Shown: positions 22,772 to 61,000, counted from the first letter of the stretch. The stretch is 64,000 nt of DNA from a virus (IMGVR_UViG_3300021255_003843:1-64000); one strand, 5' to 3'. The notes: generated by a model not told the origin, from the sequence alone. Made by a program: numbers and translations.

Positions 22772-22817
22772 AATCAACATTTTGCCGGCGTCGGCAAAAT
22801 GTTATGTAAATTTTCCT

Positions 22818-22907
22818 GATAATTTATCTGCAAAACTCAAGCTGTATTTTTACCCTACCAAGTTATCAGGTAACAATAGACATCTTGTCTGATTCAGATA
22901 GATTATC
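22818..22907. promoter_or_regulatory. Cluster of GATAAnTTATC-like operator sites
   Basis: GATAATTTATC 22818, ACCAAGTTATC 22857, GATAGATTATC 22897; the same motifs recur at 24782-24849. Confidence 0.5.
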
Positions 22908-24373: not shown

Positions 24374-24431
24374 TACGTTCCTCATACGCCTCTGACGCAA
24401 GCGCACCACTTGAGGACATATGTATTGCAAT

Positions 24432-24457
24432 AGCCGCCGTGCTCGAGCACGGCGGCT
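24432..24457. terminator. Perfect 26-bp palindrome between convergent genes
   Basis: AGCCGCCGTGCTCGAGCACGGCGGCT. Confidence 0.55.
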
Positions 24458-24528
24458 TGCAAACGCGCTGTTGTTATCTTATTTGCGCTGACCCAATATT
24501 CTTCCTCCTTAAAACTCTCCTCCCGAAA

Positions 24529-24639
24529 TTAGATCTTTCGACCTAAAAGCTGAAGTGCAACGAGGATTCCTGCCAATAAATAATACAAGATACTGATGAT
24601 ATTCAGAGCAACGTCTGAAATCGTCTTAAATCTTTCCAT
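24529..24639 (-). CDS. 36-aa hydrophobic peptide, type I toxin-like
   Basis: MERFKTISDVALNIISILYYLLAGILVALQLLGRKI; AAGGAAGTG RBS; own promoter. Confidence 0.65.
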   Translation of the reverse strand: MERFKTISDVALNIISILYYLLAGILVALQLLGRKI

Positions 24640-24702
24640 CGCAGCACTTCCTTTCCGTCGGAAAGCGCGGAAGAAAATAATCAACAACGCATTTACGATA
24701 GC

Positions 24703-24731
24703 ATTATACCGCATCAGCGGCAGCAGCGCAA
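24703..24731 (-). promoter_or_regulatory. sigmaA-type promoter for the 36-aa peptide
   Basis: TTGCGC-17 nt-TATAAT on the minus strand. Confidence 0.65.
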
Positions 24732-24786: not shown

Positions 24787-24831
24787 ACCCACACAAGTTA
24801 TCCACCGATCTCCAACATAAAAAGTTTTTCA

Positions 24832-24871
24832 GATAACTTATCTGCAAAAGTTAGAAAGAAAGTGGTACTAT
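24832..24871 (+). promoter_or_regulatory. Candidate int promoter (extended -10) with adjacent GATAACTTATC palindrome
   Basis: TGgTACTAT at 24863-24871; palindrome at 24832-24842. Confidence 0.4.
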
Positions 24872-25055
24872 ACAGCAAGCACAAGTGTTCGATCCGGTTA
24901 CCGCCATTGACAACCATGCGCAGCACAGCTATACTGAAATTGATCTGCAGGCTCTCGTAAAGCAAACTGTACAAACTACTTTACGGGAACTCTCTTCAGC
25001 GCAGCTTGACAACGGCATAGATTGTACTTTTGATGTATCGAAAGGAGCAACCGAT

Positions 25056-26135
25056 ATGTCAAAAGAAGTCCGTCGCGTCATTGTTGGGTACAACGACGAC
25101 GGAACACCAGTTATCAAACGTCTGACGGCCGCCAATCAGTATGAGATGAACGATCGTATCGTGCAAGAATACATCAGCAATGGCCGCATCAGAGAATTTC
25201 TTGATACACAGGAGAAGCCAAAGCCCACGATTTCGTTCAAAGAGTATGCGGAGCGGTGGCTTGACACCTATATCGTCACCAGAAAGCCTAACACCATCGC
25301 CACCTACAAGAAAATCCTGCGGGCAATCCTGCCTGACTTTGGAGATCAGAACCTGGCAGACATTACAACCAACGAAATCCAGCTTTATCTCAACAAAAAC
25401 AAGGACCTGTCAAAGAAAACGCTGAAGGAACGCCTTGCCCGCATCGCTCAGATCCTCGACAGCGCAAAGGAAGACGGCTTGATCGAAGCGAACCCGGCGA
25501 AATCAAGGCGTCTTGTGATCCCGACAGACAAACAGCAGGTCCGCGAGGCAATTCCGCTTGATGTCATGCGTACAATCATACAGAAATCTGCACAGCTGGA
25601 CGAGAAAAGCAAACGCCTGCTGCTTCTTTTGATCACCACCGGCGGCCGCAGAGGAGAAGTGCTCGGTCTGCAATGGCAGGACATCGACGTAGAGAACAAT
25701 CTGATCCATATCCGCCGCAATGTGACCCACGCTAACGGCAACGTACCCGTCATCGGCACGCCAAAAACCAAAGCCGGAATCAGAGATGTGCCCTATGAAG
25801 TCGCCATCAGATCTATTGTTGATCCAACAGGCCGTCAGCCAGACGCTTTCATCCTTGAAGGCGGCGAACCAACGCAGCCCATGACCATGACCATGTACAA
25901 CAACACCTGGCATCGGATTCTGAAACAAATTCCAGAGCTCAAACCATACTCGGCCCACTACTTTAGGCACACCTACACGACACTGCTGAGTGAGTACACC
26001 GACGCCACACCGAAAACCATCCAGGCCCTTGCCGGTCACAAAGACATACGCACAACAATGTCCATTTATGAACATTCACGCAAGGAAAATCTGGAAAAAG
26101 CGAACGCTGATATGCACAATCTGTTATTTGCATAA
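25056..26135 (+). CDS. int: Tyrosine integrase
   Basis: AAAGGAG RBS before ATG 25056; catalytic R (TGGRRGE), K (TPKT), HYFRH, AGH, Y (TMSIY). Confidence 0.95.
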   Translation: MSKEVRRVIVGYNDDGTPVIKRLTAANQYEMNDRIVQEYISNGRIREFLDTQEKPKPTISFKEYAERWLDTYIVTRKPNTIATYKKILRAILPDFGDQNLADITTNEIQLYLNKNKDLSKKTLKERLARIAQILDSAKEDGLIEANPAKSRRLVIPTDKQQVREAIPLDVMRTIIQKSAQLDEKSKRLLLLLITTGGRRGEVLGLQWQDIDVENNLIHIRRNVTHANGNVPVIGTPKTKAGIRDVPYEVAIRSIVDPTGRQPDAFILEGGEPTQPMTMTMYNNTWHRILKQIPELKPYSAHYFRHTYTTLLSEYTDATPKTIQALAGHKDIRTTMSIYEHSRKENLEKANADMHNLLFA

Positions 26136-26348
26136 ATGTCACTGAAATGTCACTGATAACGCGCGACAAAATACCTTGTTGTATCAGCACATTTAGCATC
26201 AGCATCTTAGCACTCTTTACACCAAAATGTCACTAAACCAGGGAAAAGTGAACATTGGTCTCCGCACAAAATAAGAGAACCCTTGCTCTGCAAAGGTTCT
26301 CAAAAAATGGAGCATAGGAGACTCGAACTACATTGAAAGTACAATCTA
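26134..26348. mobile_element. attP: arm-type repeats plus tRNA-Ala 3'-end core
   Basis: AAATGTCACT three times (26134, 26145, ~26225); reverse complement of 26308-26329 = AGTTCGAGTCTCCTATGCTCCA, a T-arm plus acceptor 3' strand consistent with G3-U70/A73 of tRNA-Ala. Confidence 0.82.
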
Positions 26349-26423
26349 AAGCCTTGTCATGTCTTGATATAAGCATAATTAAATGTTGAACAATTGGTGT
26401 GTTTATATCAACACATGCGCTAT

Positions 26424-26466
26424 AAAATAGGGGCACCGGTAATTGAAACCGGTGCCCCTATTTTTT
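26424..26466. terminator. Bidirectional terminator at the convergence of the two genome arms
   Basis: AAAATAGGGGCACCGGT/ACCGGTGCCCCTATTTT. Confidence 0.88.
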
Positions 26467-26468
26467 CG

Positions 26469-26834
26469 TCAAATCTTTTCTGTCAGGTAATCGTCCAATG
26501 CGCCAGCGGCGCGTTGCATTTCTTCCGTGTTGCCGTCGTGTATCGCATGATTTAGTAAAGCCCGAACAGCTTGACATTGGATCCTGTTCGTATGCCTGAT
26601 GTCGTCGATCTCAGCAGAGTGAGAACCGACGACATCTTCTATACGATCCACCTGTTTTTTAAGACCTGTAAACTGAGCCTTCAGATCTTCTCTTGATTGA
26701 TCTTTAGGCCTCTTAATTTCTCTAAAAGTTTTTATCACGTTGCCGACAAGGACGAACAAGCCCATCATGGCAATCAAGACAATCAGAAATATCAGAAGGT
26801 TATTGCCTTCAAACATTACCTTGATATTGTCCAT
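26469..26834 (-). CDS. Holin-associated membrane protein (1 TM plus coiled coil)
   Basis: Hydrophobic N-terminus; position at the end of the late operon. Confidence 0.6.
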   Translation of the reverse strand: MDNIKVMFEGNNLLIFLIVLIAMMGLFVLVGNVIKTFREIKRPKDQSREDLKAQFTGLKKQVDRIEDVVGSHSAEIDDIRHTNRIQCQAVRALLNHAIHDGNTEEMQRAAGALDDYLTEKI

Positions 26835-26878
26835 GGTATTACTCCTTTCCGTCAGCAACCTGAACGGTTACTGACTTA

Positions 26879-27205
26879 TCACTCGGCGTCGCCCTCGTCT
26901 TTGTATTCAGTTTCGGCGTCTGTCTTCTTACCGAACGCACGATTCAGAGCGTCGAAGCCGCCGTTGGCAGCAAGAGAAACAACAGCGGCGTTGACAAGAT
27001 CAAGAACCGCAACGTCCCAGGAAGCCAGGTTGTCTGTAGCAAGCTGGCCGACAAGCATAATAATAACAGCAAACATGTAACTGACAAGCTGCGTCGGAAA
27101 CTTCTTAAACAGCGGCTTAGTAAATTCAGTTAAGAGACCGGTGCCGATAACGCAGCCAGCGAAAGAGAGCAGATATTCCCAGGTAAAGAAAGTATCAATC
27201 TTCAT
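26879..27205 (-). CDS. Putative holin (3 TM, charged tail)
   Basis: Three hydrophobic segments, NAAVVSLAANGGFD, acidic C-terminus. Confidence 0.7.
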   Translation of the reverse strand: MKIDTFFTWEYLLSFAGCVIGTGLLTEFTKPLFKKFPTQLVSYMFAVIIMLVGQLATDNLASWDVAVLDLVNAAVVSLAANGGFDALNRAFGKKTDAETEYKDEGDAE

Positions 27206-27268
27206 ATAAATTCCACCTTTCAATTATGTTTCGTCCCGGCGCGCTCAAAGCGCCGGGATGAGTATCAA

Positions 27269-27529
27269 TTATTCACCTTCGGTAGGTTCAACTTCTTCTT
27301 CGGGTGTAGGTTCGGGCTCGACCTTCGGATGATGATACACAAAGCCATCGATGAACCGGCCTTCGCTTGTCGTAAGCGTGCAAGCGTGAACAGGCAGCGT
27401 GCTTACAGCGGCAGAACTGCGGATCGCATAATACTTAGAGTCAGCAGCAAGACGATCATCGTAAGCATAGGTCGGAGTAGAGATAGTGCCGCCTTCAAAG
27501 GTTTGAATTTCAGTTACTAAATACTTCAT
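27269..27529 (-). CDS. Small tail-associated hypothetical protein
   Basis: AGGAGG RBS. Confidence 0.7.
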   Translation of the reverse strand: MKYLVTEIQTFEGGTISTPTYAYDDRLAADSKYYAIRSSAAVSTLPVHACTLTTSEGRFIDGFVYHHPKVEPEPTPEEEVEPTEGE

Positions 27530-27552
27530 AATAAGTACCTCCTAAATATTTC

Positions 27553-29451
27553 TTAACCATTGTTTTGTTGTTTCAAATATTCCTGCATTTTCACAGAGTT
27601 AAAAGCTGCAATACGTTTCTTCGCCGTCTGAATCATAGCAGAATCATGTATAGCATAAGATACTTCGGTGATATTGTTCATATCAGACCATATCCTGTTT
27701 AACCCCAAATTGGTTTTAAGCGACATTGGCTCTATATGGTACGTTTCATGCGTCTGGCACGGATACCAAATGTCAACATCGTATTCTTTCCCATCTGCTG
27801 GCAAATATAAATATACCGTTCCTGTCCCCAACCAGAATCTGATTGGCTCAGTTGTCTGCTGACTGTATGGCGCGAGATTACATAAAGCCTGGTCTCGTTT
27901 ACTAGTATCAACTAAATATTTTGACGGCAAGTTAAACGCTATATACCTGTAATCTTCTGAATAAGTTCCTGTTCCACCAGGTGTGCCCATGTCGCCGGTT
28001 ATATGTTTCGTTTCGTGATACCATTCTTCAACAACATCGCCAGTAATTACGTCTACATAACCGCCTAATACTTTTTTGCATGGCTCATACTCTGTCGCGG
28101 TCGAACCAAGTTCAAGCTGATAGTTGTAAGACAACAATTGTTCCTGTGTTACATTTTCAACATAATATATAATTCTTATTTCAGTTTCTATGCTTAATGT
28201 AAACGTAGCAGAATTTACATCAAATTTATTAAATATCGGTAATCCATCTTTTCGCGCCACAGTTAAAGATCTCGCAGGAGCGTTTGAAGAAACAGTATAT
28301 GTCCCCGGTTTTAAAATTAAAGACCCATCTGTCTTTCCGTTTTTGCCACCAAACGTTATTGAGGTGTTGCCGTTAGGATAAGCCTTGTTCATGTCGATCA
28401 GATTTTTTCCGGTTACAGGAAGTTCAACTGTTTCTGTAGTTCCACTATACGCTTCATAAGTCGTGCTATTATCAAAAGCAGGAGTAATCAAAAAGCTTTG
28501 AATAAAACAAGATATACCACAATTCCTTATTTCTATTACGCATCTGTCTGTATCTCCAGAATATGGTTTCCAAATTACGTTTTTAAAAACTACTCTATAC
28601 GCATTATAGTAATTAAAAACTTCACCGTAAGTTGTCGAACCATCATAATTAACCAATCTCATTGTAGTGTTCAAAGGATTCGTATTATTGATCACATAGA
28701 ATGAAATGTTGTATGGTTGATCTAATGTTAAATTATCTACAACTATATAGAATACTCCATTTGTCCGTGATTCTCTTTGTGAACTTGAGTAATTATTCTG
28801 TGTTATTGTTACAACAGAAGATGGAGATTTATAATCAATCTGTGTACCGTATTCATTGGAAGAAGTCAATTCATCAGTAGCACTATTTACCTTTGTAGCG
28901 CTGTATCCAACAACATGTCCGATGTTCTTTTTGGCATGACGAATATTTACACTATCGTATAGATCAACAGAACAATTGTTTTCGTATGGCTGAAATAATC
29001 CAGCCATTTTACCTTTTACAAGCATAGCTGTTTCAACTTTGCTTGCAATAGATAAACGGACATAATAAGCATTTTCCGGCGCGACGAGAGTTGTATTTGT
29101 TGCCTCTATAGATGATACAAAAACCTTATCTTTTGAATAAAAAGCATGATATACTAGATTTGTTCTTGTGCCACTAAACGTATATGTTTCACCGGGAACA
29201 ATCGCTATGTAATCAGAACAATATTGACCAGTCCAGTGTATTACACTTCCTTGACTTGAAATAGCACTATCCGCTATAGCCGTTTTATAATCAAACAAAT
29301 TTTTCCCAGTGCCGCCGGGCCAGGGTTTATCGTATCCATTGAGATTTTGCTTTGGTCTAAAATGTGCTTTTAAATTTTTAATGGGCACTCTTGCTACACT
29401 CTTAAAACTCGCTACATTATTATCTCCAACTGTATAAGTCATACCGGCCAT
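27553..29451 (-). CDS. Tail fibre/receptor-binding protein with carbohydrate-binding-like modules
   Basis: GKNL repeats, 'QLELGSTATEYEP' module ends; AT-rich. Confidence 0.7.
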   Translation of the reverse strand: MAGMTYTVGDNNVASFKSVARVPIKNLKAHFRPKQNLNGYDKPWPGGTGKNLFDYKTAIADSAISSQGSVIHWTGQYCSDYIAIVPGETYTFSGTRTNLVYHAFYSKDKVFVSSIEATNTTLVAPENAYYVRLSIASKVETAMLVKGKMAGLFQPYENNCSVDLYDSVNIRHAKKNIGHVVGYSATKVNSATDELTSSNEYGTQIDYKSPSSVVTITQNNYSSSQRESRTNGVFYIVVDNLTLDQPYNISFYVINNTNPLNTTMRLVNYDGSTTYGEVFNYYNAYRVVFKNVIWKPYSGDTDRCVIEIRNCGISCFIQSFLITPAFDNSTTYEAYSGTTETVELPVTGKNLIDMNKAYPNGNTSITFGGKNGKTDGSLILKPGTYTVSSNAPARSLTVARKDGLPIFNKFDVNSATFTLSIETEIRIIYYVENVTQEQLLSYNYQLELGSTATEYEPCKKVLGGYVDVITGDVVEEWYHETKHITGDMGTPGGTGTYSEDYRYIAFNLPSKYLVDTSKRDQALCNLAPYSQQTTEPIRFWLGTGTVYLYLPADGKEYDVDIWYPCQTHETYHIEPMSLKTNLGLNRIWSDMNNITEVSYAIHDSAMIQTAKKRIAAFNSVKMQEYLKQQNNG

Positions 29452-46048: not shown

Positions 46049-49000
46049 TTAGAAAGAATAGCTCATCGTATTAAAGCCTTGCTTCGAAAGCTCTTTAACA
46101 AACTTCTGTCCAACACGCTGCGCGACCTCGTCAAAGTCGGCGTCATCCTTGAACTGAGCTTCTGTGATGTTGATCACAAGCTCGCCAATGTTCTGGCTGT
46201 TTCCACTGAACGAGTTGCTGTCGATATTGCTGATTGTAGAACGATAACGCACAACCTTTGCCTCGTCTAAGAAGCTGCGTATCAGAGCGGTATCGTCGGC
46301 GCTAAGGAAAGCTTCGGGCTTAGCTTTAGTGCCGTCAACCCAGGCGGGACCAGTGAAATCAACTAAACCACCGGAATCAAAGCCAAATAATTTCTTAACG
46401 TTATCGGCCAGTTTGTTGGCAGTAGCAGATATTGTTTGAGCAACTTTACTCGTTGAACCAATTTTGTCTGTGCCAGAAGAAGCAGTGTCGTAATGAAGAG
46501 CTCTGGAATTGTCAACGTAAGCGCCATTGTTATCTTGAACATTGATCCTGTCAGCGTCTGTTGTGGTATTCGCATTATTGCCAGACCCAGAACCGGATCC
46601 AGATTTCTTACTCGATCCATTTGTCCCAATCCCGCTCAGACCATTATCGCTATGACTATAGACAGCATCACGCTTTTGCGCAGCAATCCAGTTATCATAC
46701 ATCTCGCCCCAATCGTAAAGCATTTGTTTCTGCTCATCCTCTGAAGCATTGATGTAATCCTGACTTGCCATCATGTAATTCAGGAACAAGTCTTTGCCGC
46801 TCAAGATATCAGCGATTTCTTCCCAGTAAGTGTGCGTATAACCAATCATTTGCTCGTAGGTGTCGATCCAACCCTGGATCATCTGCTTCTGCGCAGCGTC
46901 CATTGCTAAGCCGTACTCTTCTACGTTAGCCTTCAACCAATCGAGCATACCTTCCTGGCTCATCTGCATTACCTGGTTTACCTCGTCAGCCAGATTGTTG
47001 GCGTCTTCAAGCCAGGCTTCAAGATCTTCGCCGCCGTAGTTAACGAAATCATCGTAAGCCTGCAGCTGGCTATCGATCTGTTCCTTTTGGTAATCAGCTT
47101 CATCTTCGGCAACATCCCATGCAATCTCTTTCTCGATCTTCGCAATCTGCTCTCTCAGCTTTGCGGCATCCTTTGTGCGGGTGCTGTCCATCTCAATCAA
47201 CGCAAGCTGTTTCTTGTACTCAGAAAGCTCTTCATACTTCTCAGCTTCGTCTTCAGCGTCTTTTCTACGCTGAAGACGTTCGTCAATCAGATTCTTTTCT
47301 TCTTCAAGCGCAGCGCGTTTCTTCTCGATGTCTTTCTCAATCAAAGCCCACTCAGCGCGATAGCGCGCACGGATCGCTTCGATGATGGCGTCTTGCATGC
47401 TGACAGTACCGGCAAGCATATCACGCTCGCGCTGGATACGGTTGTTAATCTCAGTGTCAACCTCGGTTTCAAGATCGGTATGCAGCTTCAGTATCGCCTG
47501 TTCGTTCTCTTCAATCTTCTTTGTATTCTCCTGAATCGCGATGTTTGCTTCCTCGATCGCTTCTTCATAAGCGAGTACACTGTCATACAGGCTCTTCCAA
47601 TCGTCGCTGTTCTTCTTCGTCCTTGCCATCTGCTTCTTCGTTGTTTCGATATGCTTCTCAAGCGTAGCAATCAGGCGCTTCTGAGCATCGTTCTCAAGCT
47701 CGATCATCCGGTTCTGGTTGCCTATCTCGCTGGCGTTTTCATACTTTGTCTCTTGATACTGGATCATCTTAATCTCGTGATTCAGCAGAGCTTGTTCGCG
47801 CTTCAGGCGTTCAAGCAGTTTCTGAGCAGCGGACTTACCTCCGCCGCCTCCGCCGCCTCCACCACCGCTACGTCCTTTACCAAGATCGGTAGTCTGGAAC
47901 TGTAGTTTAATATTGCTGCCGTCGGATGTAACGACACCAGTTGCTTGCATACCCATTCGCGAAAGTGTTGCCATGATCTCTTGAATTTGAGCTTGCGCTG
48001 CACCAGTTGCTTCGTTGGCAAGCTGAGACAAGTCAACAGTTACTTGACCTTTATCAACCAGCAACTGAATTTGGGATCCGTCCAAACCAAGATTCTGCAG
48101 TTTCTCGTTGAACGTACCTTGCAGACCTTCTGTCAACATGGTGCCAGCAGTATTCAGATAATTGTCAATCGCTTGCTTATCTTCAGTTTCCCAATCTTTA
48201 ATTGCTTGCTGTACAGGGGTGCCGCCTTTTCTTAAATCTTTTTTATCTAAGCCAGTACCTTGCGCAATAGCAGAGAGCACGTCGTTACTTCTATCACCTT
48301 TTTTGTATTTCTCTCGATAATACTGATTGTTAGCGATAGCATTGATGCCCTGCCGGAACGATTTCATATATGCATTAGAATCTTTAATGTCTCCGCTAAG
48401 TGCTCTAACGCCGCTTGCAATATCTTTTGAAGCTTTATTAAATTTATTATACTGTTCAATCTTTCTTGCAGAGAACTCGCCGTTCAAGGCGGTCATATCA
48501 TATGTAAAATCCTCTGTTGCATTGCCGATCGCATAAAGAAGATCAGCTCCACCTTCAATATCACTCAACCATTGAGCAAAATCTTCGTGACTTGCTATAT
48601 AAGATTGAACAGTAGCAAGCTGTTCTGTGTTTAAATTTAGCGAACTGCTTGTACCAAATCCTTCACCAAATTGCTGCCTGGCAATTTCCATATTGTTATT
48701 GAATAATTGATCTCGATAAAGAGGAGCATAGCCAGTGCCTTGGATCAGGGCATTCCGCATCTGGTCATATGTCCATCCGTGCTCGCTATTATAAAAGATT
48801 TCATCAAAGCCGCTGCCAAGCATACGAGCTCCTTCGTCCTTCTTCAGATAATCTAAAAGCTCGGCGTCGCTATTGATGGCCGCTATCAGAGATTCCTGAT
48901 CTGAACTTTGCATAGCCAATCTTGCCAAACGGTTCTTATATGTCTCCGCTTCTTTTTCAGGTTCAACATTAGCTGCTGCACCTTGCGTTAAGATTTCATA

Positions 49001-52000
49001 AGCAGTTCTGTTATCAGTTATTTCGCTAATGCCAGTAATTTGTCCATCTTTCTCTGTCAGCTGTAACCCAGACATATCAAGCAGTTGTTCGACAAGCTCT
49101 CTAATTTTTTGATTGCCATCCTTAGCCAGATCTGAAAGGCTACTGAGCTCAGGGAAAGCTCCAACAATTGCTGCTTCCAAACTATCTCGTATCTTTTGTT
49201 GATCGCCTTTTAAATCTTTTGCAAGATCTTTCAGTTTTTCAGGTGTCTTTTTATATTCTTTTATTTCTTCATCTGTGAGTTGAGCTTTTGTCTGTAGGTA
49301 CTCCCAATCAGTCTCAGTAAGATTAGCTTGATTATCATACATTGTTTGAGCGATTTGAGCTGCTTGACTTGTGCGTTGAAGCTCAGAGCCTTCTGCGCTT
49401 ATTAATCTTCTCTCTTCTCTGGTGGGTCCTTTTGTACGATCAATGTCTGCAAGCCTCTGCGCAAGTTCAGCGCTACCAGCTTTCAGCTCTCCATTGCGTT
49501 CTCGCTCATAAACAGTTTGATAAGCAGACCCGGCTTTAAGCGCATCTATCTGATATTTCTCAAGCTGCTGCCCAGACATCACAGCAGAGTAAGCTTCGTT
49601 AAAGCCCTGCACGTTATTTGTCAGATAATCAAGCATCGTCGGGTTATTCTTTCTCAACTCTTCGAGCTTTGCCTTGTCGCCATTGAGAGCAGCTGTAATG
49701 TATTCAGATACACCGGACGTTGTCATCCTCGTAGCGTTCGGAGCCGTAATACCGTACGCGCCGTTCAACAGCATGGCGCGAATAGCGTCAACGTCGCCTC
49801 GCTCTATAGCCGCAAGGAAATCAGTGTTACTAAGTAGATCTGTCGCAGCGGTTGTTTTATATCCATTTGTACGCTGTACTAAATCGACATAACTTCTGAA
49901 ATCGCCTAAATTGCCATTACTCAGTTCGAAAGAATTCAGCATTGCTTGATAATCAGTGCTTTGATCTCCCTGTCCAAGCGCTGCTCTTGTATCCAGCGCT
50001 CGTGCCAATTGCTGAGCCCATGTCAACTGCGCGTCAGCTTTGCCGCCATACTGCATCTGCCATTGCCCATTCTCGCCGCGCACAATTTCACCAAGCTGAG
50101 AAGCACGAAGTCGTTGATTCACTTCAGCTACTTGAGCATCTGTCATGCCAGTAATCATATCGCTTGTAGACTTCTGCGTCCTACCAGGCTTAGACATCCC
50201 AAGCATTACCTTGATGCGCTCTAAGAAGCCTTCTGGTTGCTTAGTTTCGTATGCGGCATCACCAAGCTGATCCACCAATATTTGGTCGACAGCTGTGCTG
50301 ACAGTAGTGTTGCGAAGCTTCTCAACCTCTTCCATTGCATATCCGTAATCATTTGCTAAGCTGCGTTCACCAGACTGATATTGCGCAATAACGTTGTCGC
50401 CAATATTAAAGGCATTCTTGATCGTATTCCAATCCTCTGGCCGCTGTATTCCTTGACCAGAAGTTAAGCGTTTATAAGCCTGCTGCACCTCATCGAGGTT
50501 AGTGATCTGCTGTCCAAGCTGATTCATCTGGCTAATGCTATCAATGATATTGCCGTTAGCAATCGTCGTCAGTTGATTACTGAGACCAGATAACACTTTA
50601 CCTTCTTCTTCGAGTGCGCCGATTACCTCATTGCGTATCGCATCGGCCAAAGTCTTAGCAGCTTTGGCCGCAGCTTCGCTGTCAGAGCCATACGTCGCAA
50701 GATAATCAAATAAACCAGGGAAGCTCTTTAACTGGCTTTGAATACCATCTTCTAATCCTGCAAACATATCTTTCGCACCGTCGCCAGCTTCCATCAGCTT
50801 ACTGATTTCTTCCAGCGTTTTGGCAGTTGTCATTTGCGGAGTATAACCAACAAACGGATTATCTGTAAACGATTCCTGCGCTTTCTTTTTTAGATCGTCT
50901 AATTCCTTTTGATCAACTGTTTCTCCATTGTTTTGTTTTTCAATTAACTGCAAATATCTGAGAAGCTCAGACGATTGACCAAGCTGACCAAGATATTTTT
51001 CACCAGCCTGCTGCAAGCTCATATTATTATCAAGCACATCTTTTATCATCGCTCTATTGGAAGCGTTTGAGAAAACACCGCTTGTGTTATACAAATTTTT
51101 CCAGTTATCATACCATAAGCCTTGCAATAAACTTTCTCCATTTTTTCCGACAAGATTACCGTTTTCATCAAACGACAGCCCGAGCCCGCTCATCACGTCA
51201 GAACCTACATCCGAATTGGCCGCATTAAGCAAGCTAATAAAAGCAGGTAAATACTGATTTTGTCTTATAAGCTCTTCACCGACGGACAGTTTTAAATCAT
51301 CCCAATTGTCTGCAGTAACTTCTTTATCAAACCCAGAAAAACTCTTCATCGATTCTATAAAGCTTTGTGCTTCTGCAAAGTCATATGATTTCTCTTGTAT
51401 GTCAGACATCTGTTGAATTGTACTAACCCAGTTGTTAATACCTTCGGTGGCAGTTTTTATCTCATCATCTGTTCCGTATAAGCCAGTAATCCAACCAGCT
51501 TGATCAGAAGTGATCCGGCTTAATGCCTGCAAGCGATTTAAGTTACGAGTATTGTACGCCTTTCGATACTCAGCTTCCGCTAACTGGTATTCGTCAGCTT
51601 CTCTATTTCCTATCAATCCAGACATTGTATATACATTTGACAAGATTCCAGAACCGCTGTTGTTCTGCCATATTGCCTGTTCAGTCGGAGTTAAATTATT
51701 CTCTATATATTTACCAAACGCTTGCGGTGTCGCAAATTGATTAGAGCTTATTAATCCATAGAGCTTATTAGCCAATTCATACTGGCTGTTTTCAGATTGC
51801 ATTGCTTTATACGGATTGTACAAGCTTCTGTTCTCATAAGTCAATCCGCTTAAATCTGATAAAGTCTTGCGATCAAACAGGCCATATGCGCCGCTATAAT
51901 CACTATATCTCGCGTTTAATCCAAGCTTGTTCATAGCAGCGTCAAGAATAGGAGTTCCGTATTGCGCACCAAGATAATCATAACTGTAAGCAGCATCGTT

Positions 52001-55000
52001 CTGAGCTTGTAACAATCTCGCATTTAAGTCCGTTGAGGCCCCTGTCATCGTAATATTTCTATGCGTTACATCAGCGTTTATAAAATCATTTTTGTTAATA
52101 CCGATTAAGCTGAACAAGTTTTCGTCAATAGCATCCAGTTCTGTACCATTGTTAAGATATTGACTGATTGTATTGTATGCTACAACCCTGTCATACACAT
52201 CGTTAATATTCTGTACCATTTTATCTCTAAGCGCTTCGCGGCTTGTTGTTTGAGCTGAACCATGTCCTTCAGATAAAGCTTGAATCACCATATTCGTAAG
52301 CCCATCGGACACTTGGCCACTTCTTTCTTGTAATCTTAACCATGCTGTCTTTAAGATATCCAAAGCGTTATTTCTATCGGCGGTAATCTTGCTGCTATTC
52401 AATGTTGTAATAGCGTTTGCAACATCCGATCCATACACACTGGTTATCGCAGCCAGCTCGTCTTCTGTAAGCTGAACATTAAAATTACCGCTGTTTAATT
52501 GGGCGGCGGCTTTAAGTACAAGCTTTTGAGCCTGCTCTTCTGTTGTAGCCATCGACGCTTGGTTGATATCAAAAGCAGCGTTCGGTCTGTTGTAATTAAC
52601 AGAGTTAAACCAATTTTCTTGGAACCCTTTGCCGTTCGTAAGACCCAGCTGCTCAGCTTGCGCCTGAGTCATTAAACCGGCGTGAATCGCAGAGCCATAT
52701 GTGTTTACCAAAGCTTGTCTATAATCACTGCTGTTCAAATACGCCACATACTCTCGAGCAGCTGCGGCTTCATTGCCAAAGAAATCTTTGTCGCTCTTGC
52801 CAGCGTAAGTAGAAGATCCGGCTTTAATAAGCTCCTGATATTGAGACGGAATATTTGCCCAAGCAATAGTGCCAGAAGCTAACCGATTTGCAAACTGTCC
52901 GGCGATCGCTTGATTACGCATGGTTTCAAGTTCTGTGTTGAAAGTTGTTTGCGCCTCATGTTTCTGAATTCCATTTCTTGAAAACTGGTCAGCTAACTCA
53001 ACGAGATCCTTGATCAGCGTACCGGCTTTCAAAACTTCTTCTATGCCTTCAGACTTAAACTTGATCTTAATCTCAGTTTCTAACTCTTTCTTGCGTGCCG
53101 CATCAGTAGTGTTTATCCACTCATACAGCTCTGGATATGCACTCTTGATCTCGTTTAAATACTCTCCATATTTTTTCTTAGCTTCATCGGCATTAAGATC
53201 AAAGTTGACAATATTTGAAGCGACAGATCTCAGCTGTCTGGATGTATAAAAATTGTTGCCGTTAGCGGCCAGAGGATTTTCTTCGACATATCCTTGACCG
53301 GTATATGTTGTTGAAAATTGTTTATCTTGTCCGATAGTTGTTCTATAACCAGCAGATTTTGCGGCCTGCGTAAACTGCTGAAACTCTTGTCGAGTAGACT
53401 CGTCGGTTATACTATTCGCGTAAAGTTCCATAATTCTATCAGTAAAATCAAGGCCTTTATTTTCTTTTCTGAGCTTATTCCACTCTTCTTCATCCATTGA
53501 TTTAACGAAACCGCCAAGCAGATCTTGCATATAAACATTGAACCCGTGCGCACTTTCTTCTCTTGCTTTATTTAATCTGCTATTTTCAAGTGTCATGTAC
53601 AAACCTCTGTTTGCATCAAAGTTTGTCCTATTAACACCCCACTGTTTAGCAATTAAATCGTATTGATCCGCACTCGCAGTACCAGCATTTATAGCATTGT
53701 ATGCAGCAAGTTCTTGACCATAACTCATATTACCAGACAAAATACTGGCCGTATAATCCGTTAAAGAGCTTTGTAAAACTTTACCTTGTAAATAATCTCT
53801 GAATTGATCCAACGTATATTTGCCGGTGCCAACTTTAAGATCTTTAATCATTTTAGCAAACTCTGCGTCGTTTGTCATAACGCCCGTCAGATTAGGTATT
53901 TGTTTTTCAACATTGGATATCATATCAGCCATATCTTGATAAGAGCTGGCTTGCATGGCATATGACAACACATTTTTATATACATCTGTATATTCTTTAT
54001 CATTTAAACTATAATCATTAACAAATTGATCTAAATTTCGATAAGCATTTAATCCAGCTGAAGTTTTTATTCTATTTATGTCAAAATCATCGTAATTTAA
54101 TTCAATAATATCAGACGTTTTTTGAATTATTGATTGTTTATAATTGCGATATGCTTCTTCAGCTTTATCTAAATCGTCAAAACCAAACAATTGCTTTCCA
54201 TTTTCATCGGTGTAGAAATATTTGTATTTATTATTTGCTTTCTTAGCTGCATCCTGGAATTGTTGTGGTGCTTTATATGTATTTAAATATCTTTGTAAAG
54301 ATTCATGTAATGCATCTGGCAAATCTTCAGGCAATACTTGAGCAGTATCTTTCAATAATTGATCCTTTAAATATTTCCGCGCTTCTTCATCTCCGCCAGT
54401 TAAGCTATCTGTATCTCCAAGAATTTGACCTATAAAAGTATCAACTTCTTCTTCTCGCTGTTGTTGATAAGCGTCGGTATATAATTTCTGAATTCCTTGT
54501 CCTTTTGACCCAATTAAATAATTCCTAAACGAGTTTAAGAACTCTTTTTGATGTTCAGGATTAAGATGCGTGATCGACGTAAATACATTTTCTGAAAACC
54601 TGGCTCTCGTTTCATTTCCAAGTTTCTTTAAAAAACTGACGCCATCATCAGTATTTAAGTATATCTTAAATTTATCGTTTAATTTAGGATCATTAACATC
54701 TATGCCGAGCATTGAAAACAATGCCTTTTGATAGAATTCTTCATATGCTTTTTCAGAAGAAAGATCAATATCGTAAATACTATCAGGCATTATATCCGCA
54801 TAATCAAATGTTATTGCAGAAGTTGCATCAGCAATGTCAGAAGGCAACGTACCAGATGCCCAGTTGACCAAATATTTTTCATTTAATGAAGTACCTACAT
54901 TTTTATGTTCAACAGAATGTTGCGATGCATTATAAGCATCTCTTAATTTATCTGGTTTATACGCCGCTTCATAAGCAGCATATTTCATATCAATAGTATC

Positions 55001-58000
55001 TTCATCTATGTCTCTTTGTAATTTATCTATATGATCCTGACCTTGAGTAACAAATATTTTCCAATTTTTGCCAGCTTCTTCTGCGCTTTCAAATCCTTTC
55101 TTAACACCGTCAAGCGTACCAGCTAAATCGTTAAGAGAACCTATAAAAGCCTGTTGATCAGAAGCGGACATATTGCCCTTTGCTTTTTCCCAAGCCTCGC
55201 CATATTTCTGAACTTCATCAATTTGTTTCTGTAAAGGTTGTAAACCTTCTTTTCTGTTTTTAGAATAAGAATCAGCTAGCTTAATTTGCTGTTGAGCCTT
55301 TAATGTCGGGTCGTTTTGATCTACAAAATTTTTACGAGCGGAACCGATAGCTCCGGCAACACCAAGAACACCAGCGATCGCGACAACGGAAGCCAGTGTG
55401 CTAACCAGACCCGCCGCGCCTTTGAAAGTGTTAGAGGCAGCATTAACGATCAGCAGTTTAGTGGCTAGCGCAGCAAGCGCGCCGCCAATCACAACAGCAG
55501 CGGTAGACACAGGCCCAGCAACAGACGTGAGATCTTTCAGTCCACCGACAAAGCCAGTAACCATATCGACAGAGCTCACAAAGAACTGGTTGCTCGACAT
55601 GCTTGAAACCAAGCCATCGTAAGTAGCCTTCAATTCTTCCATCGCAGCCGTAATACTCTTCACAGCGATAGCATACTTGCTATCTGTCGTGCCTTCACTA
55701 TTCTCGGCTAAGCCAAGTAATCTGTCTAACTCAGCACCGCCGTCTTCTCCCATGCCTTCCATCAAGGTCTGGAACACGTTCGTCTGCCTGCCGCCAGCCA
55801 TTGTATACGTAATGTTATTGCGCTGAATATCATTCAGACTTCCCCAAACCTTAGACAGATCGCGAAGCACATCGAAGCTGTTTCTAAAGCTCTTGCCACC
55901 GCTTTCACGTAACTGAATGCCAGCGCCGGACAGAGCTTTTTCAACATCGTTGATTGACACGGAAGCGCCCGTCTCGTCGTTGACATAACCCTGATTCGTA
56001 ACACGATTCATGCGTGAGAAGATCGTCTGCATAGCAGTACCGATTACCTGGCCGCTCATCTGAGTTTTACTGATACCGATCGTCAGCATTGACGTTAATT
56101 CTTCGTAGCTGACACCAGCAACCTTCGCAGCGGCAGCGGACTTCTGCATACCCTTGAAGATCTCATTAGCTGTCGTAGCCGCGCTGTCGCCCAAAGCGGT
56201 CAGCGCGTCCATCGCTTCTTCAGCGGAGTTTACGAGGCCGTTCTGTATAGCAGTGGTGATTGCCTTGCCGGCGTCTGTCACCTTTGCGCCAGTAACGGTG
56301 GCGAATTTGATGATCGCGCCAGTACGGTCCTCTACCTGCTGGTCATTTAAACCCTGGCGATAAAGGTCCGACTCAACGGATGCAACGTTAGCAACGCTCG
56401 TCTTCAGCTCGATAGCGCGATCGACCGTCGCCTTTTTGACAGCCTGCATCTGCTCATCCGTCTTCATCGTAATCGCCTGGATGCCACGCATCTGGCTATC
56501 AAACTGCACAACAAAGTTCTTAGCTTCGGTAAACGCCTGACGGATCATCTTCCTGCCGAAGCTCTGCAGCAGTTTATCCGCAGCGGTTGCCGCCGTCTCT
56601 AAACCGGCAGCAAGCATATTGCCAATTGTCTTGAAGTTGCCGGCAGTGTCGCCGAACTCCTTCATTGCTTCCTTCGTGCTCTCGAGTGCCTCACGATAAT
56701 GGTCAAGACTTGCCGTAGCAGAATCATATTGAGCCTGCGCAAGGTTCCTGTCTTCGTCGGTAGCGGCATTATCAATAGCGTTCTTGGCAGCAAGCTGCTG
56801 TTCTTCCATCCGCTTGACCATCATATCGTTGTAGTTATATTGGCTACGATACTGATCATACATGTTCTGACGCTGGAGGTAAGTGCGACTCAGAGGATCA
56901 ATTGCAGTTCTCGATTGCCAGTTGCGGTTCATCTGCTCGACCTGCATCTCGGCACGCTTAGCTTGCATGATCTCTTGTTCGCCGCGAAGCTCTGCCTGCT
57001 TCTGACGCTGGCGAATACGCTCGTTGTAAGCAGCTTCTTCGCGTTTCACGTAATCATCGTTAAAGCGTTCAAGCGGCTTAAGGCGCTCATCTTTTTGTTC
57101 TTGTGTCAGATCAGACTTGCGGATTCTGTCAGCAATCTTGCGAGCATTATCTACATTTTTCTGCGCTTTATCTCTGACAGCTTCAACACCTTCAAGATAC
57201 CTCGAGACATCAATATTTTGCTCGTCGTATTTACGCTTATAATCTTCGAAGGTAGTGTTTACTATCTTCGCTTCATCTTCTGTAATAAACCCAGTCTTCT
57301 GTTTCTTCCGGTTGATCCTGGCTTGCTCTTCTCTAAAATCAAGGAAAGATTTTTCTTTATCAATATCGTATTTATCAACATCGGCCATGTAGGTGCTTAA
57401 CACCTGAGCAACGCGAGCTCTATCCTGCAGTTTAAGATGCTGCTGTTGAAACATCGTATTCTCGTCGATTTGCTGAGTAAGCACAGAATACGGTTCCATC
57501 TTCTTAGCAACTTCTTCGTCGCTCATGCCTTGATCTTTATATACTTTCTCCAACCTTTCACTCAGCTGAGAAACAACTTCTTTCGCTTCGTTTGCTCCTT
57601 GCTTCAGCTGCTGGAACGGGTCTTTGATAACAGTACCTTTTATTTTATCAAGCAGATTTGTTATATCTGCTTCTTTCATCTTGCCAGTTTCTTCTCTCGC
57701 ACCAGCAAGATAAGTGTCAGTTTCTGCTAAACGCTCTTCGTAAAGTTTTCGCTCAGCTGGGCTGAACGGATACTTCTCACGATCCTGCAAATGTTTCTGA
57801 AGTTCATTGCGATAATCTTCGACAGCCTGCAGCTGGTTGTTATACTCTTCGAACTGAACATCGAGCGCGGAAACTTTATTGGCACGCTTACGATTTGTTT
57901 TATCTAGATTCTCATATAAGCGTTTTGCTTTAAGTTCAGTGGTGTCAGCAAAGTCTTGATTCATCTGCTGCATCAAGTCTTTGCGTCCACCAACCAATTC

Positions 58001-61000
58001 TTTAAACTCCTGCTTCATGGCAGGCGGCAGCTGATCAAACTCTTCGCCATTCTTAATAAAATCTTCAAGCTGTCTATAAACAAAGCCAACGTTCGCAGCC
58101 CTGCTTCCGTAATAAGTTTCTGCTTGAGACTTACCTTCAAGCTCATTCTCTTTCTTTAGAAGACCAGACAAGAACTGCTGCTTCACGCTGTCAACACTGG
58201 ACCGCAAAGTGTTAGCATGTTCTTGAGCTTGAATGTAAGTATAAGCCTTACCAAGTTGAGCATTCTCATCTAAGATACGCTGACGTTGCGCTGTTATATC
58301 GCGATAAGCCTGCATATCAATCCCGCTGCCAGCAGCGAGTTGATCAACTTCGTCGTATACGCGCGCTACTTGAGCAGCTTCGGCCTCGGCTTTCGCGAGA
58401 TCACCGTCTACCGCGTAAATACGTTTAGAAGCTTCAATAGCCTCTTCTTTTGTCATATCCGGAGAATAGCGAGCCTGATCTTCCTGCGGCAACGTACTCT
58501 TGATCTGATTCATCTGCTCTTCGTGCTGTTTCGTCTCGATCTCAATACGCTGTAATTCAGCTTGATTCTCCTGTAGCTTTTTCTCAACTGCTTCACGCTG
58601 CAGCACGGTATCCTTGCCAGTGAAAGTAAAATCTAAACCGCCCTTCTGCCCTAAGAATAATTCTGGCAGAAGCTTCGCAGGATCGTCTGTACGGAACACA
58701 GAGCTAATATTTGGCTGGTTGATACCTCTTTCGATGAAACCCTGGGCTGCAGTAATACCATATTCGTTCATCTTCTTTTGAACATAAGAATCGAACGAAA
58801 CCTCAGAGCCATCTTCCATTTTAATCATGCCACCTTGGGCTTTTTGATATGCTTCTTCCTCGATTTCACGCTTAGATGCTATAATCATAGCCTGCATATC
58901 ATCAAGCTCTTCTGCAGACATCGGAGCCATCGGGTTAGCAATATCATACGCCTTCATTGTGCGAAGGTTCTTCATCAACGCTTGCGTTGTTTCGCCTGCT
59001 CCGCCATAACCCATATGTTCAAGAGCTTGAAGCAGAGCGTACGTGCGTTCCATATTGACGCCTTTAGACGCAACCTGAGATACAGCGCGCATTGTTCCAA
59101 CGTCTGTTGTGTTAAAAATAGAACGGAAGTTGATCTTATCAAAACCAAGATCGCGAAGTTCCTTCATGTTGATAGGAATCTCATGTCCGTTTACTGTTGC
59201 GGTGTAGATGTCCTCAGGAGAAGGAACATCCATGTTGTCGCGGCCTGTTACGTTAAACAGGCGACTAAAACGAGACGGAAGCTTAGACCATTGAGCACCA
59301 GCGTATAAAGCCTTCTTCATCTGAGGAGTTGCTTCAGTAGATGTAGCGTGCTTTAACCCGGCGGTAGCTTGGTCGTAAGTAGGTGTGCTTTGAATTGCCG
59401 CTGCTAAAAGATCTTTATTTTCAGGAGCGTATATATCAAACATTGCTGCACGACGCGCAGAAGCGTCGGCAGCACCCATTTCGTTTGTAACATCTTGACT
59501 TGTTTGAAAGAATAAACGACGATGAAGCGGATTGTCTACATTTTTAGCCGCTTCGGCAGGCATATCTACCTTCTTAATAATGGGCTCCGTACTTCCTTCA
59601 AAATCCTGAATGGCTTTTTCTTGAATGGCAACTACTTCAGCAAACGCTTCAGCTAAATCGCCATAAATCGTTTTTGCTTTATCCCCATCTAAGTCTGCGC
59701 TACCAAGCGTCGCCAAATCCGCCTCAGAAGCGAATAAGCCACTCGTAGTTTGCCCGAAAACTTTATATATATCTCTCGCTAAATTAGCATAGTTTTTGCC
59801 AACAACAAAGTTGCCAAACAGAGAAGGGCTTCTTTGAACAGCAACTTTTTTAGCATCAGGTCTGGCAAAGTCAACAAGTTGACCCTTGTTTAATGCGAAC
59901 ACACCTTCGAGATCTTCGTCACTAATGGTTAAAGCTGTGCCAGTTTTTTCTTGATATTGTTGACGGATTCTTTTCAGCAAGTCAGACCTACTAAGGCCAT
60001 TGATCGTTTCAAGACCTAGTATGGACGCCAGAGGAGACTTATTGATAGTCTGGTTAATAACAGAAGGGTTTGTACCAAAATCTATCCATTCACCAGAAGA
60101 CATGCGCTCTGTCAATGATTCAATCTCGTTCTGCACCCAGCTTTGCACGGCACTGCTGTTCACGTTTAGCTTGCCGCTTCTGATCTGCTTACCGAGATAG
60201 TTGTCAGGATCAGCAAACAAATATTCTCTGATGCCAGCCTCAGAACTTAACAGGTTGATGCGTCTATCAAATTCGTCGATTTGTTGTTGACGCATCTTCG
60301 GACTGAGGTTCATAAAGGCCATTGCTTGAGTGCCGATACCTTTTGCTCTTGTTTCAGCATCATCATATGTGCTCATACTCGACATGCCATAATGCTGAAG
60401 CATCGCCGTAAAACCTTTGCTGATCTCTTCAGGAGTGTGGAAGTTCGAGTACGCCTGCATGTTTTTAATCGTAGAAGCATCAACGAAGCCATGGTAATCG
60501 GTTAAGTCAATGTTGCCGCCAACGCCAGGCAAGATAAACCGACCGTTGGCGTCCGTTAAGCCGGCAGCTTTTGCCCATTCGCCAACAGTCTTATAACCGG
60601 AGATTTGGTGGAACGTACCCTTGCCGGCAACACCCATACGGCCCTGGAAATCTTTTTCAGGTAGAATACCATCCATGAACCAGCCGATACCATCGGCAAG
60701 CTTCTGCTTCACATTTTCATCATTGATTTGAGACAGATCAACAACAGCAAAGTTGCGATTCTTGAAATTGCCATGTGTGTCCCAGCTGTTTGACCAACCT
60801 TTACCGGTTGCATCGAAGTGTTTTCTCAAGCTTTCAATGTCTTTGAATTCATAAGCAGAATCAACGAAATCATTCCAGAAATTAGCGCCCTTACCGTCGG
60901 CAGTTACAAAGCCATGCTTCTGAGCCCATTCCTGCTCACGCTTCATGACAGCTTCATAAGCTTGCTGCTCAATCATGCGGACACCAGCATGAGTACCAGT

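Follow-up and report, generated by a model that had tools for sequence, protein, structure and literature searches.

Complementary arms flanking int and attP in an uncultured phage: a possible RNA sensor of the integration state

How might an integrase message register whether the phage DNA that encodes it is integrated? The question is raised by a locus in which the stretch directly preceding the int Shine-Dalgarno (SD) sequence is complementary to a stretch situated just beyond the attachment site. To our knowledge, the way in which temperate phages match Int synthesis to their state (incoming, integrated or induced) has been worked out in very few systems (lambda sib, the P2 split operon and ICE promoter switching). 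The source is an uncultured gut/rumen phage and the DNA analysed, here called the window (64,000 nucleotides), covers the opening 64 kb of a linear viral record in IMG/VR (105.5 kb, approximately 95% complete). The plus-strand genes, with int as the last, converge on minus-strand genes at about 26.4 kb. Deposited phages provided no DNA match and, at 1e-30, no Int protein match. The window also includes a single open reading frame of 5453 aa on the minus strand (46049-62410).

A repeat search of the window identified two inverted-repeat arms of 31 nt (25007-25037 and 26329-26359), which are 81% complementary and lie 1291 nt apart. The first-pass annotation had described an 18/20 match between 25018-25037 and 26329-26348 that extends further on both sides. 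This description is accurate: the two mismatches in the 20-nt core are U.G and G.U on the plus strand, the arms reach 31 nt, and the TCGA at 25038-25041 is also able to pair with 26323-26326 by crossing a 2-nt bulge. The 20-mer of the left arm has only two sites in the whole 105.5-kb genome, namely the arms themselves. A search of shuffled sequences gave an expectation of 0.01 matches for the arm pair. Inverted repeats with 18/20 matches and a gap of 30-2000 nt occur four times in the real genome, compared with a mean of 0.2 in 25 Markov simulations. A chance origin of the inverted repeat that brackets int is excluded. The other strong long-range repeat in the genome is a 34-nt inverted repeat (17496-17529 and 17922-17955) with a gap of 392 nt.

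The locus begins with a predicted sigma-70-type promoter on the plus strand (TTGACA-17-TATACT, 24907-24935; 11/12 positions match, with a start near 24943). Of 11 lineages, 9-10 retain the hexamers and the 17-nt distance between them, and the spacer varies freely; this is likely to be the int promoter. It is followed, on the same strand, by the left arm (IR-L, 25007-25041), composed of a conserved outer TGACAAC, a variable middle and an inner part that overlaps the 5' arm of a local hairpin (25027-25065). This hairpin (14 bp, including two G.U pairs; -15 kcal/mol) carries the SD sequence AAAGGAG (25041-25047) in its loop and the AUG (25056-25058) in its stem. The int gene (25056-26135, plus strand) specifies a tyrosine recombinase that is 359 aa long when counted from the annotated ATG. 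Downstream lie the P arm (26134-26238, plus strand) with three direct repeats of AAATGTCACT (at 26134-26155 and 26224-26238), which are probably arm-type Int sites and persist in relatives as AAATGTCAC, AAATGTGAC or TTTGTACG; an intrinsic terminator predicted on the minus strand by a terminator scan (26275-26301); and the att core (26308-26329, minus strand), which consists of the last 22 nt of tRNA-Ala(GGC) from the T-loop to the 3' end. The right arm (IR-R, 26323-26359, plus strand) begins at the core edge and occupies the int 3' untranslated region (UTR). A predicted bidirectional terminator with a perfect 17-bp stem (26424-26470) separates int from the convergent minus-strand genes; its stem is followed by a T-run when read on the plus strand and by TATTTTAT when read on the minus strand. 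The geometry of ribosome-binding site, att core and terminator proposed in the first-pass annotation is correct.

A number of other features were noted in this region. A second hairpin (26358-26417, plus strand; 18-bp stem and 24-nt loop) is located in the P' arm/3' UTR directly after the right arm. By eye, its stem sequences vary and pairing is retained in four lineages (L002, L038, L042 and L043); the hairpin might function like sib or be bound by a protein within the P' arm. Approximately 60 nt upstream of the int promoter is a near-perfect palindrome, CAGATAAcTTATCTG, within TTTTTCAGATAACTTATCTGCAAAAGT (24825-24851). It recurs 2 kb further upstream (22811-22837), and related words precede int in L002 and L003. 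The palindrome at 24825-24851 looks like an operator, possibly belonging to a second, regulated promoter from which the entire open frame upstream of int (see below) would be transcribed. No excisionase was recognisable among the six small ORFs neighbouring int. In Rfam 15 there was no match at gathering score in 24900-26470, and the only matches in the window to reach threshold are three tRNAs at 11.9-12.5 kb.

The int product matches Pfam PF00589 (1.4e-18), PF14659 and PF22022, and SAM-like domains are present. In an alignment of 20 homologues, R198/R199, K237, H301, R304, H328 and Y338 are invariant. Judged by motif position, they would correspond to the catalytic residues R, K, H-x-x-R, H and Y. 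The locus thus combines the catalytic domain of a tyrosine recombinase with the 3' part of a tRNA in attP, as expected of an integrase with a tRNA target. In three integrated copies (L011, L012 and L041), int and the P arm precede the same 22 nt, which lead into a complete tRNA with G3:U70 and anticodon GGC. One of these, L012, is identical to L028 and is found in a Christensenella sp. UBA4379 metagenome-assembled genome (MAG). Prophage remnants next to tRNA-Ala(GGC) (L011, L012/L028 and L029) have lost all but the 3' part of int, which starts at residue 20, 203 or 266, and retain the P arm and core; they identify the probable hosts as Christensenellales/Clostridia. Among 401 sampled genomes of the order to which the Christensenella MAG belongs there was no intact lysogen, only the known truncated int remnant, and a scan of genome contigs for intact lysogens also returned remnants only.

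These copies define the position of the arms with respect to the crossover. Identity between phage and host stops at 26329, which places the crossover within the block from the T-loop to the 3' end, and the right arm begins exactly at this position. Since this is the last attP base shared with tRNA-Ala, integration must separate the arms. At the junctions of L011, L012 and L041 the body of the host tRNA-Ala takes the place of the right arm, which supports the proposal that the downstream copy lies beyond the att core. The minus-strand terminator at 26275-26301 would end the rebuilt tRNA-Ala after integration. It is not a plus-strand terminator because the sequence that comes next on the plus strand is A-rich.

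If the arms are important as a pair, their complementarity should be retained as their sequences diverge, and the first-pass annotation had suggested looking for covariation in related int-attP loci. We assembled Int homologues (66-96% identical) from IMG/VR, JGI, ENA and Logan contigs, all with the same tRNA-Ala core. They include eight lineages in the attP state (WIN/L037, L038, L002-4/L010, L040, L042, L043, L044 and L045). In all eight, the stretch before the SD sequence is complementary to a stretch just past the core. The middle 10-15 nt of the arms are completely different between lineages and matched within each (for example, TAGATTGTACTTT, CTGCGTC, AACTTGCT, AGAATCCCGCAGATA, ATATATCTCTC, CCAAGCCCAGTGGA and AATAAACACTGC). 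Duplex energies of cognate arms range from -39.3 to -52.2 kcal/mol compared with a non-cognate mean of -20.8 kcal/mol. Row by row, the strongest partner is always the cognate one; of 40320 permutations, the cognate assignment alone ranks first; and the cognate duplexes lie about 6-8 SD (standard deviations) below those with shuffled 3' regions. In L045, a synonymous change of GAC to GAT in the left arm is matched by a change of G to A in the right arm. The two arms differ by 13 gap columns over the eight lineages (in L038, for instance, they measure 28 and 31 nt), so that the spacing between outer and inner parts is unequal in the two arms. The right arm begins 0-7 nt past the core in every lineage. 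Complementarity is preserved by covariation. A search of IMG/VR with an Int profile for more lineages added only distant integrases.

Complementarity is absent in three instances. In the prophage copy L041, the duplex between the leader and its own 3' region (-21.9 kcal/mol) equals the shuffled mean. In the 49%-identical relative L046 it is -32.3 kcal/mol, weaker than the shuffled mean of -34.8 kcal/mol; this relative and L050 (39%) have other cores and no convincing bracket. The third is a hybrid, L039 (ENA contig NODE_470, 69.7 kb), in which the P' arm has been swapped at the core. When compared with the window (26308-27680), it is 100% identical from the core rightwards for at least 1.4 kb and 50-88% identical leftwards. 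Its arms no longer match, and the duplex energy falls to -28.8 kcal/mol. Sequence identity on either side points to the int/P-arm module having been exchanged recently, with the breakpoint precisely at the tRNA-Ala core. A chimeric assembly is unlikely, as the shared exact core is far shorter than usual assembly k-mers and this Int is found on two contigs. Exchanges at the core must keep generating mismatched arms, and the matched arms of the other eight attP-state lineages therefore argue for selection. Conversely, the existence of L039 with its mismatched arms, and with Int on two contigs, implies that pairing is not strictly needed for short-term survival. L039 also lacks a 300-bp block (24423-24723), both flanks of which align at 80-100%; this is an insertion or deletion of a small cassette between the upstream gene and int.

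Free sequence with retained complementarity, the indels, the paired change in L045 and the constant orientation of int together favour base pairing as the constrained property. A helix would tolerate differences in arm length as bulges, and the 13 gap columns fit this type of constraint. Which strand would carry the helix is suggested mainly by the predicted signals. On the plus strand a promoter lies upstream of the left arm and no terminator is predicted before 26424. A transcript including both arms is therefore expected, ending in the terminator at 26424-26470. Two terminators predicted on the minus strand would keep the arms off a single RNA of that strand. This context favours the plus strand. 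The first-pass annotation had pointed to G-U wobbles in plus-strand RNA. Both mismatches in the 20-mer are indeed G.U, but as an argument for the strand this is weak: with further lineages included, the count is nine G.U to four A.C (one-sided p of about 0.13), which is not significant. A strand reading of this kind can work, since the sole non-Watson-Crick pair of the terminator at 26275-26301 is a G.U on the minus strand both here and in relatives. By duplex energy, the plus-strand version is the more stable in six lineages and the minus-strand version in two (L044 and L045).

The outer ends of the arms behave differently from the middle. The word TTGACAAC / GTTGTCA occurs three times in the locus: at the promoter -35 (24907-24915), at the outer end of the left arm (25006-25014) and at the outer end of the right arm (26352-26359). 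Its nucleotide conservation exceeds coding or pairing needs, and the outer motif CTTGACAAC keeps its nucleotides even where it is partly unpaired. This hints at an additional, sequence-specific role. The left-arm TTGACA was considered as the -35 of a second promoter and was discarded, there being no -10 at 16-18 nt in most lineages. The arm motif is also not the same site as the P-arm repeats, as the two do not change together.

Conservation of this kind is what might be expected if both arms were bound as DNA by Int or some other protein of phage or host origin. The left arm, situated between the int promoter and start codon, would then imitate the C'/P' side of attP and serve in autoregulation or in looping to attP. 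The motif (C)TTGACAAC / GTTGTCA is conserved as sequence in nearly all lineages, with its third copy forming the promoter -35, and the right arm meets the core with its inner end, at a place where Int would be expected to have a core-type site. There is a precedent in KplE1, for which PMC2951348 documents autoregulation of Int through att-arm sites. DNA sites leave unexplained, however, a variable middle that matches within lineages and differs between them. They also sit uneasily with the spacing of outer and inner parts, which differs by 1-3 bp between the arms in most lineages, and with P-arm repeats that change (AAATGTCAC, AAATGTGAC and TTTGTACG) without corresponding changes in the arm motif. 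Int proteins that are 66-96% identical are, in addition, too similar for a wholesale change of specificity over 15 bp. The duplicated Int sites entertained in the first-pass annotation fit poorly for these reasons, and we consider an explanation by DNA sites unlikely. Gene conversion or occasional inversion of the int-attP segment might maintain the match by concerted evolution, with no function in RNA. Inverted repeats around a recombinase gene are the classic layout of an invertible segment or insertion sequence, and the block exchanged in L039 spans approximately the start of the left arm to the core, suggesting recombination boundaries. Yet int and its flanking genes have the same relative orientation in every locus whose flanks were inspected, and the repeat middles are not conserved between lineages. 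This is not the pattern of an invertible segment or an insertion sequence, the other alternative raised initially. Conversion would erase the lineage-specific mismatches and the 13 gap columns, which persist; 30 bp is short for homologous exchange; and the left arm is without a full core-like site. Concerted evolution of this type appears highly improbable.

Covariation supports equally well a pairing in trans, in which the region of the right arm would be present as a separate small plus-strand RNA, or as read-through, acting in the manner of an antisense RNA on the 5' region of int. The right arm, second hairpin and terminator (26323-26470) would indeed make a compact RNA of about 150 nt. 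Nevertheless, a promoter scan revealed no plus-strand promoter between the int stop codon and the right arm, and a trans-acting RNA would not need a constant position against the core. Moreover, nothing stops int transcription before the right arm, so that the cis RNA should exist anyway. We regard pairing in trans as very unlikely.

The interpretation that we prefer, and consider on balance probable, is that a 5'-3' helix forms in cis within the int mRNA, is broken by integration, and sets Int translation, mRNA stability or both. The repeat, its position relative to the crossover, its covariation and its loss in the prophage copy and the hybrid are observed; from these we infer action as RNA, in cis and on the plus strand, with an effect on Int output. 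The int transcript would begin at the promoter (24907-24935) and end at the terminator (26424-26470), and the arms would be the two strands of a long-range helix of approximately 27-35 bp. The 5' strand would be located directly before the int SD sequence and the 3' strand in the 3' UTR just past the tRNA-Ala att core. As the crossover occurs in the core, only unintegrated attP DNA would yield an RNA with both strands, and the helix would thereby make Int synthesis responsive to the integration state. Transcription of int in a lysogen would instead proceed into sequence antisense to the tRNA.

Predictions as to whether the helix would raise or lower Int output turn on the local hairpin (pairing of 25027-25040 with 25052-25065), which had been overlooked in the first-pass annotation and whose 5' arm overlaps the left arm. 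It has a z-score of -4.2 in the window phage; each of 11 lineages, the 49% relative among them, has an equivalent hairpin, with z-scores from -2.3 to -4.8, and the consensus exhibits compensatory changes at 5 of 10 pairs. When the 1527-nt transcript (24944-26470) is folded, the long helix has a probability of about 0.95, the AUG hairpin about 0.05, and the AUG is unpaired at 0.5-0.8. With the same RNA cut at the core, the long helix is absent, the probability of the AUG hairpin rises to about 0.99 and that of an unpaired AUG falls to 0.01. Folds of 1.5-kb RNAs are unreliable, and they take no account of ribosomes, translation or kinetics. In the five lineages folded, the predicted helix displaces the AUG hairpin in two (the window phage and L042), in which it would turn translation on in the attP state by removing the hairpin that buries the AUG. 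In the other three (L038, L002 and L040) the AUG hairpin persists beside a slightly shortened long helix, and displacement as a general rule fails. In these lineages the helix may instead be a long double-stranded target for RNase III or a clamp, with a negative, sib-like effect; RNase III could accept a duplex of the predicted length, 27-35 bp interrupted by small bulges. Anti-sequestration is therefore a good model for the window phage, as far as predicted folds can indicate, and as a general rule is unproven. The helix would change Int output, with a sign that the folds suggest could be activating or repressing according to the lineage. For the proposed integration-sensing switch as a whole, the separation of the arms, the covariation and the promoter/terminator context are in favour, and the helix predictions that bear on the direction of effect are split (displacement in 2/5 lineages).

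A further complication is that the promoter and the left arm are located within an open frame which is continuous with int (24855-25055, plus strand; 67 codons) and has a possible GTG start at 24885 with no SD sequence in the window phage. In 10 of 10 close lineages, the int frame continues without interruption over 47-93 upstream codons. Over 47 codons it contains no stops, compared with 18 and 47 in the other two frames. An SD sequence and start codon are present near the beginning of the frame in L040, L041, L042, L043 and L045. Homologues annotated in databases with lengths of 390-467 aa have NL(D/E)N ... (S/P)(E/K)G(E/D) in common before the Met; homologues P0002-P0071 are among those in which the upstream frame is fused to int, with a conserved NL(D/E)N ... 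SxG(E/D) junction. The pN/pS ratio of the upstream peptide is 0.07 and 0.18 in two pairs and about 0.6-0.96 in four others, a sign of uneven selection, and the extension belongs to no family in Pfam or PHROG. This frame is probably an N-terminal extension or an alternative long form of Int. The left arm, lying within an open frame fused to int, is thus probably translated in some transcripts. The left-arm codons CTT and GAC are kept in 11/11 and 10/11 lineages, whereas in int proper only 1 of 103 columns with an invariant residue keeps a single codon, which implies a constraint at the nucleotide level.

The region may possibly have a dual use, encoding part of a long Int in transcripts from upstream and providing a 5' UTR for those from the internal promoter. 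The initial description of the left arm as an int leader is consequently appropriate for RNA from the internal promoter and incomplete for a frame that is continuous with int in 10/10 lineages. It is conceivable, although we judge it decidedly unlikely, that the integration state would choose between two Int isoforms and so bias integration versus excision. The helix of the attP state would then block or cut transcripts encoding the long Int, leaving the short Int from the internal SD/AUG, and long Int could be made in the prophage.

If the cis helix is correct, a 5'-3' clamp of the mRNA that is broken by integration would be a simple post-transcriptional sensor of state that needs no extra protein. 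A literature search returned no description of int mRNA ends pairing across attP, and such pairing could conceivably, though this too is unlikely, be a general and undescribed form of integration sensing in phages. The int-attP lineages constitute a clean test bed, with eight natural compensatory variants, a mismatched hybrid and a prophage junction. Should the principle be general, it would supply an annotation rule for locating attP and the side of the crossover from sequence alone, as well as a design element for integrase-based genetic tools.

The proposed arrangement can be compared with several known systems. In lambda sib, a local hairpin is cut by RNase III and this leads to 3'-to-5' decay of the int message. 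The locus described here is similar in that int reads towards attP, a cis element lies beyond attP and is uncoupled by integration, and Int synthesis would depend on whether the DNA is integrated. Unlike lambda sib, whose retroregulation of int is mentioned in PMC6379469 and PMC5389636, it does not rely on a self-contained distal hairpin: the right arm would pair 1.3 kb upstream, next to the SD sequence, and the local hairpin at 26358-26417 is distinct from the right-arm element. The first-pass comparison with lambda sib, modified to long-range 5'-3' pairing, therefore captures the logic of an element distal to attP and not its form. In the split operon of P2, integration separates int from its promoter. 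There, as here, the position of attP relative to int ties Int expression to the integration state, but in the present case the int mRNA would lose a pairing partner in its 3' UTR. The transposase mRNAs of IS10 and IS200 also have their start in a hairpin, with fold-back inhibition of read-through transcripts involving local pairing only. As in these elements, the recombinase start is buried in a hairpin and upstream RNA decides its availability; the difference is that here the partner lies beyond the recombination site, and we know of no transposase mRNA with a start hairpin of this kind that uses such a partner. Finally, in ICEKp1, ICEclc and ICEEc1 the int promoter switches with the integration state, a host tRNA promoter driving int when the element is integrated and a 3'-end promoter when it is excised (PMC13023037). 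In both cases the joining or separation of the element ends changes what is linked to int. In the ICEKp1 type the control is transcriptional and the 5' end of int is at the junction, whereas in the phage locus it is the 3' end of int that faces the junction and the promoter is unchanged.
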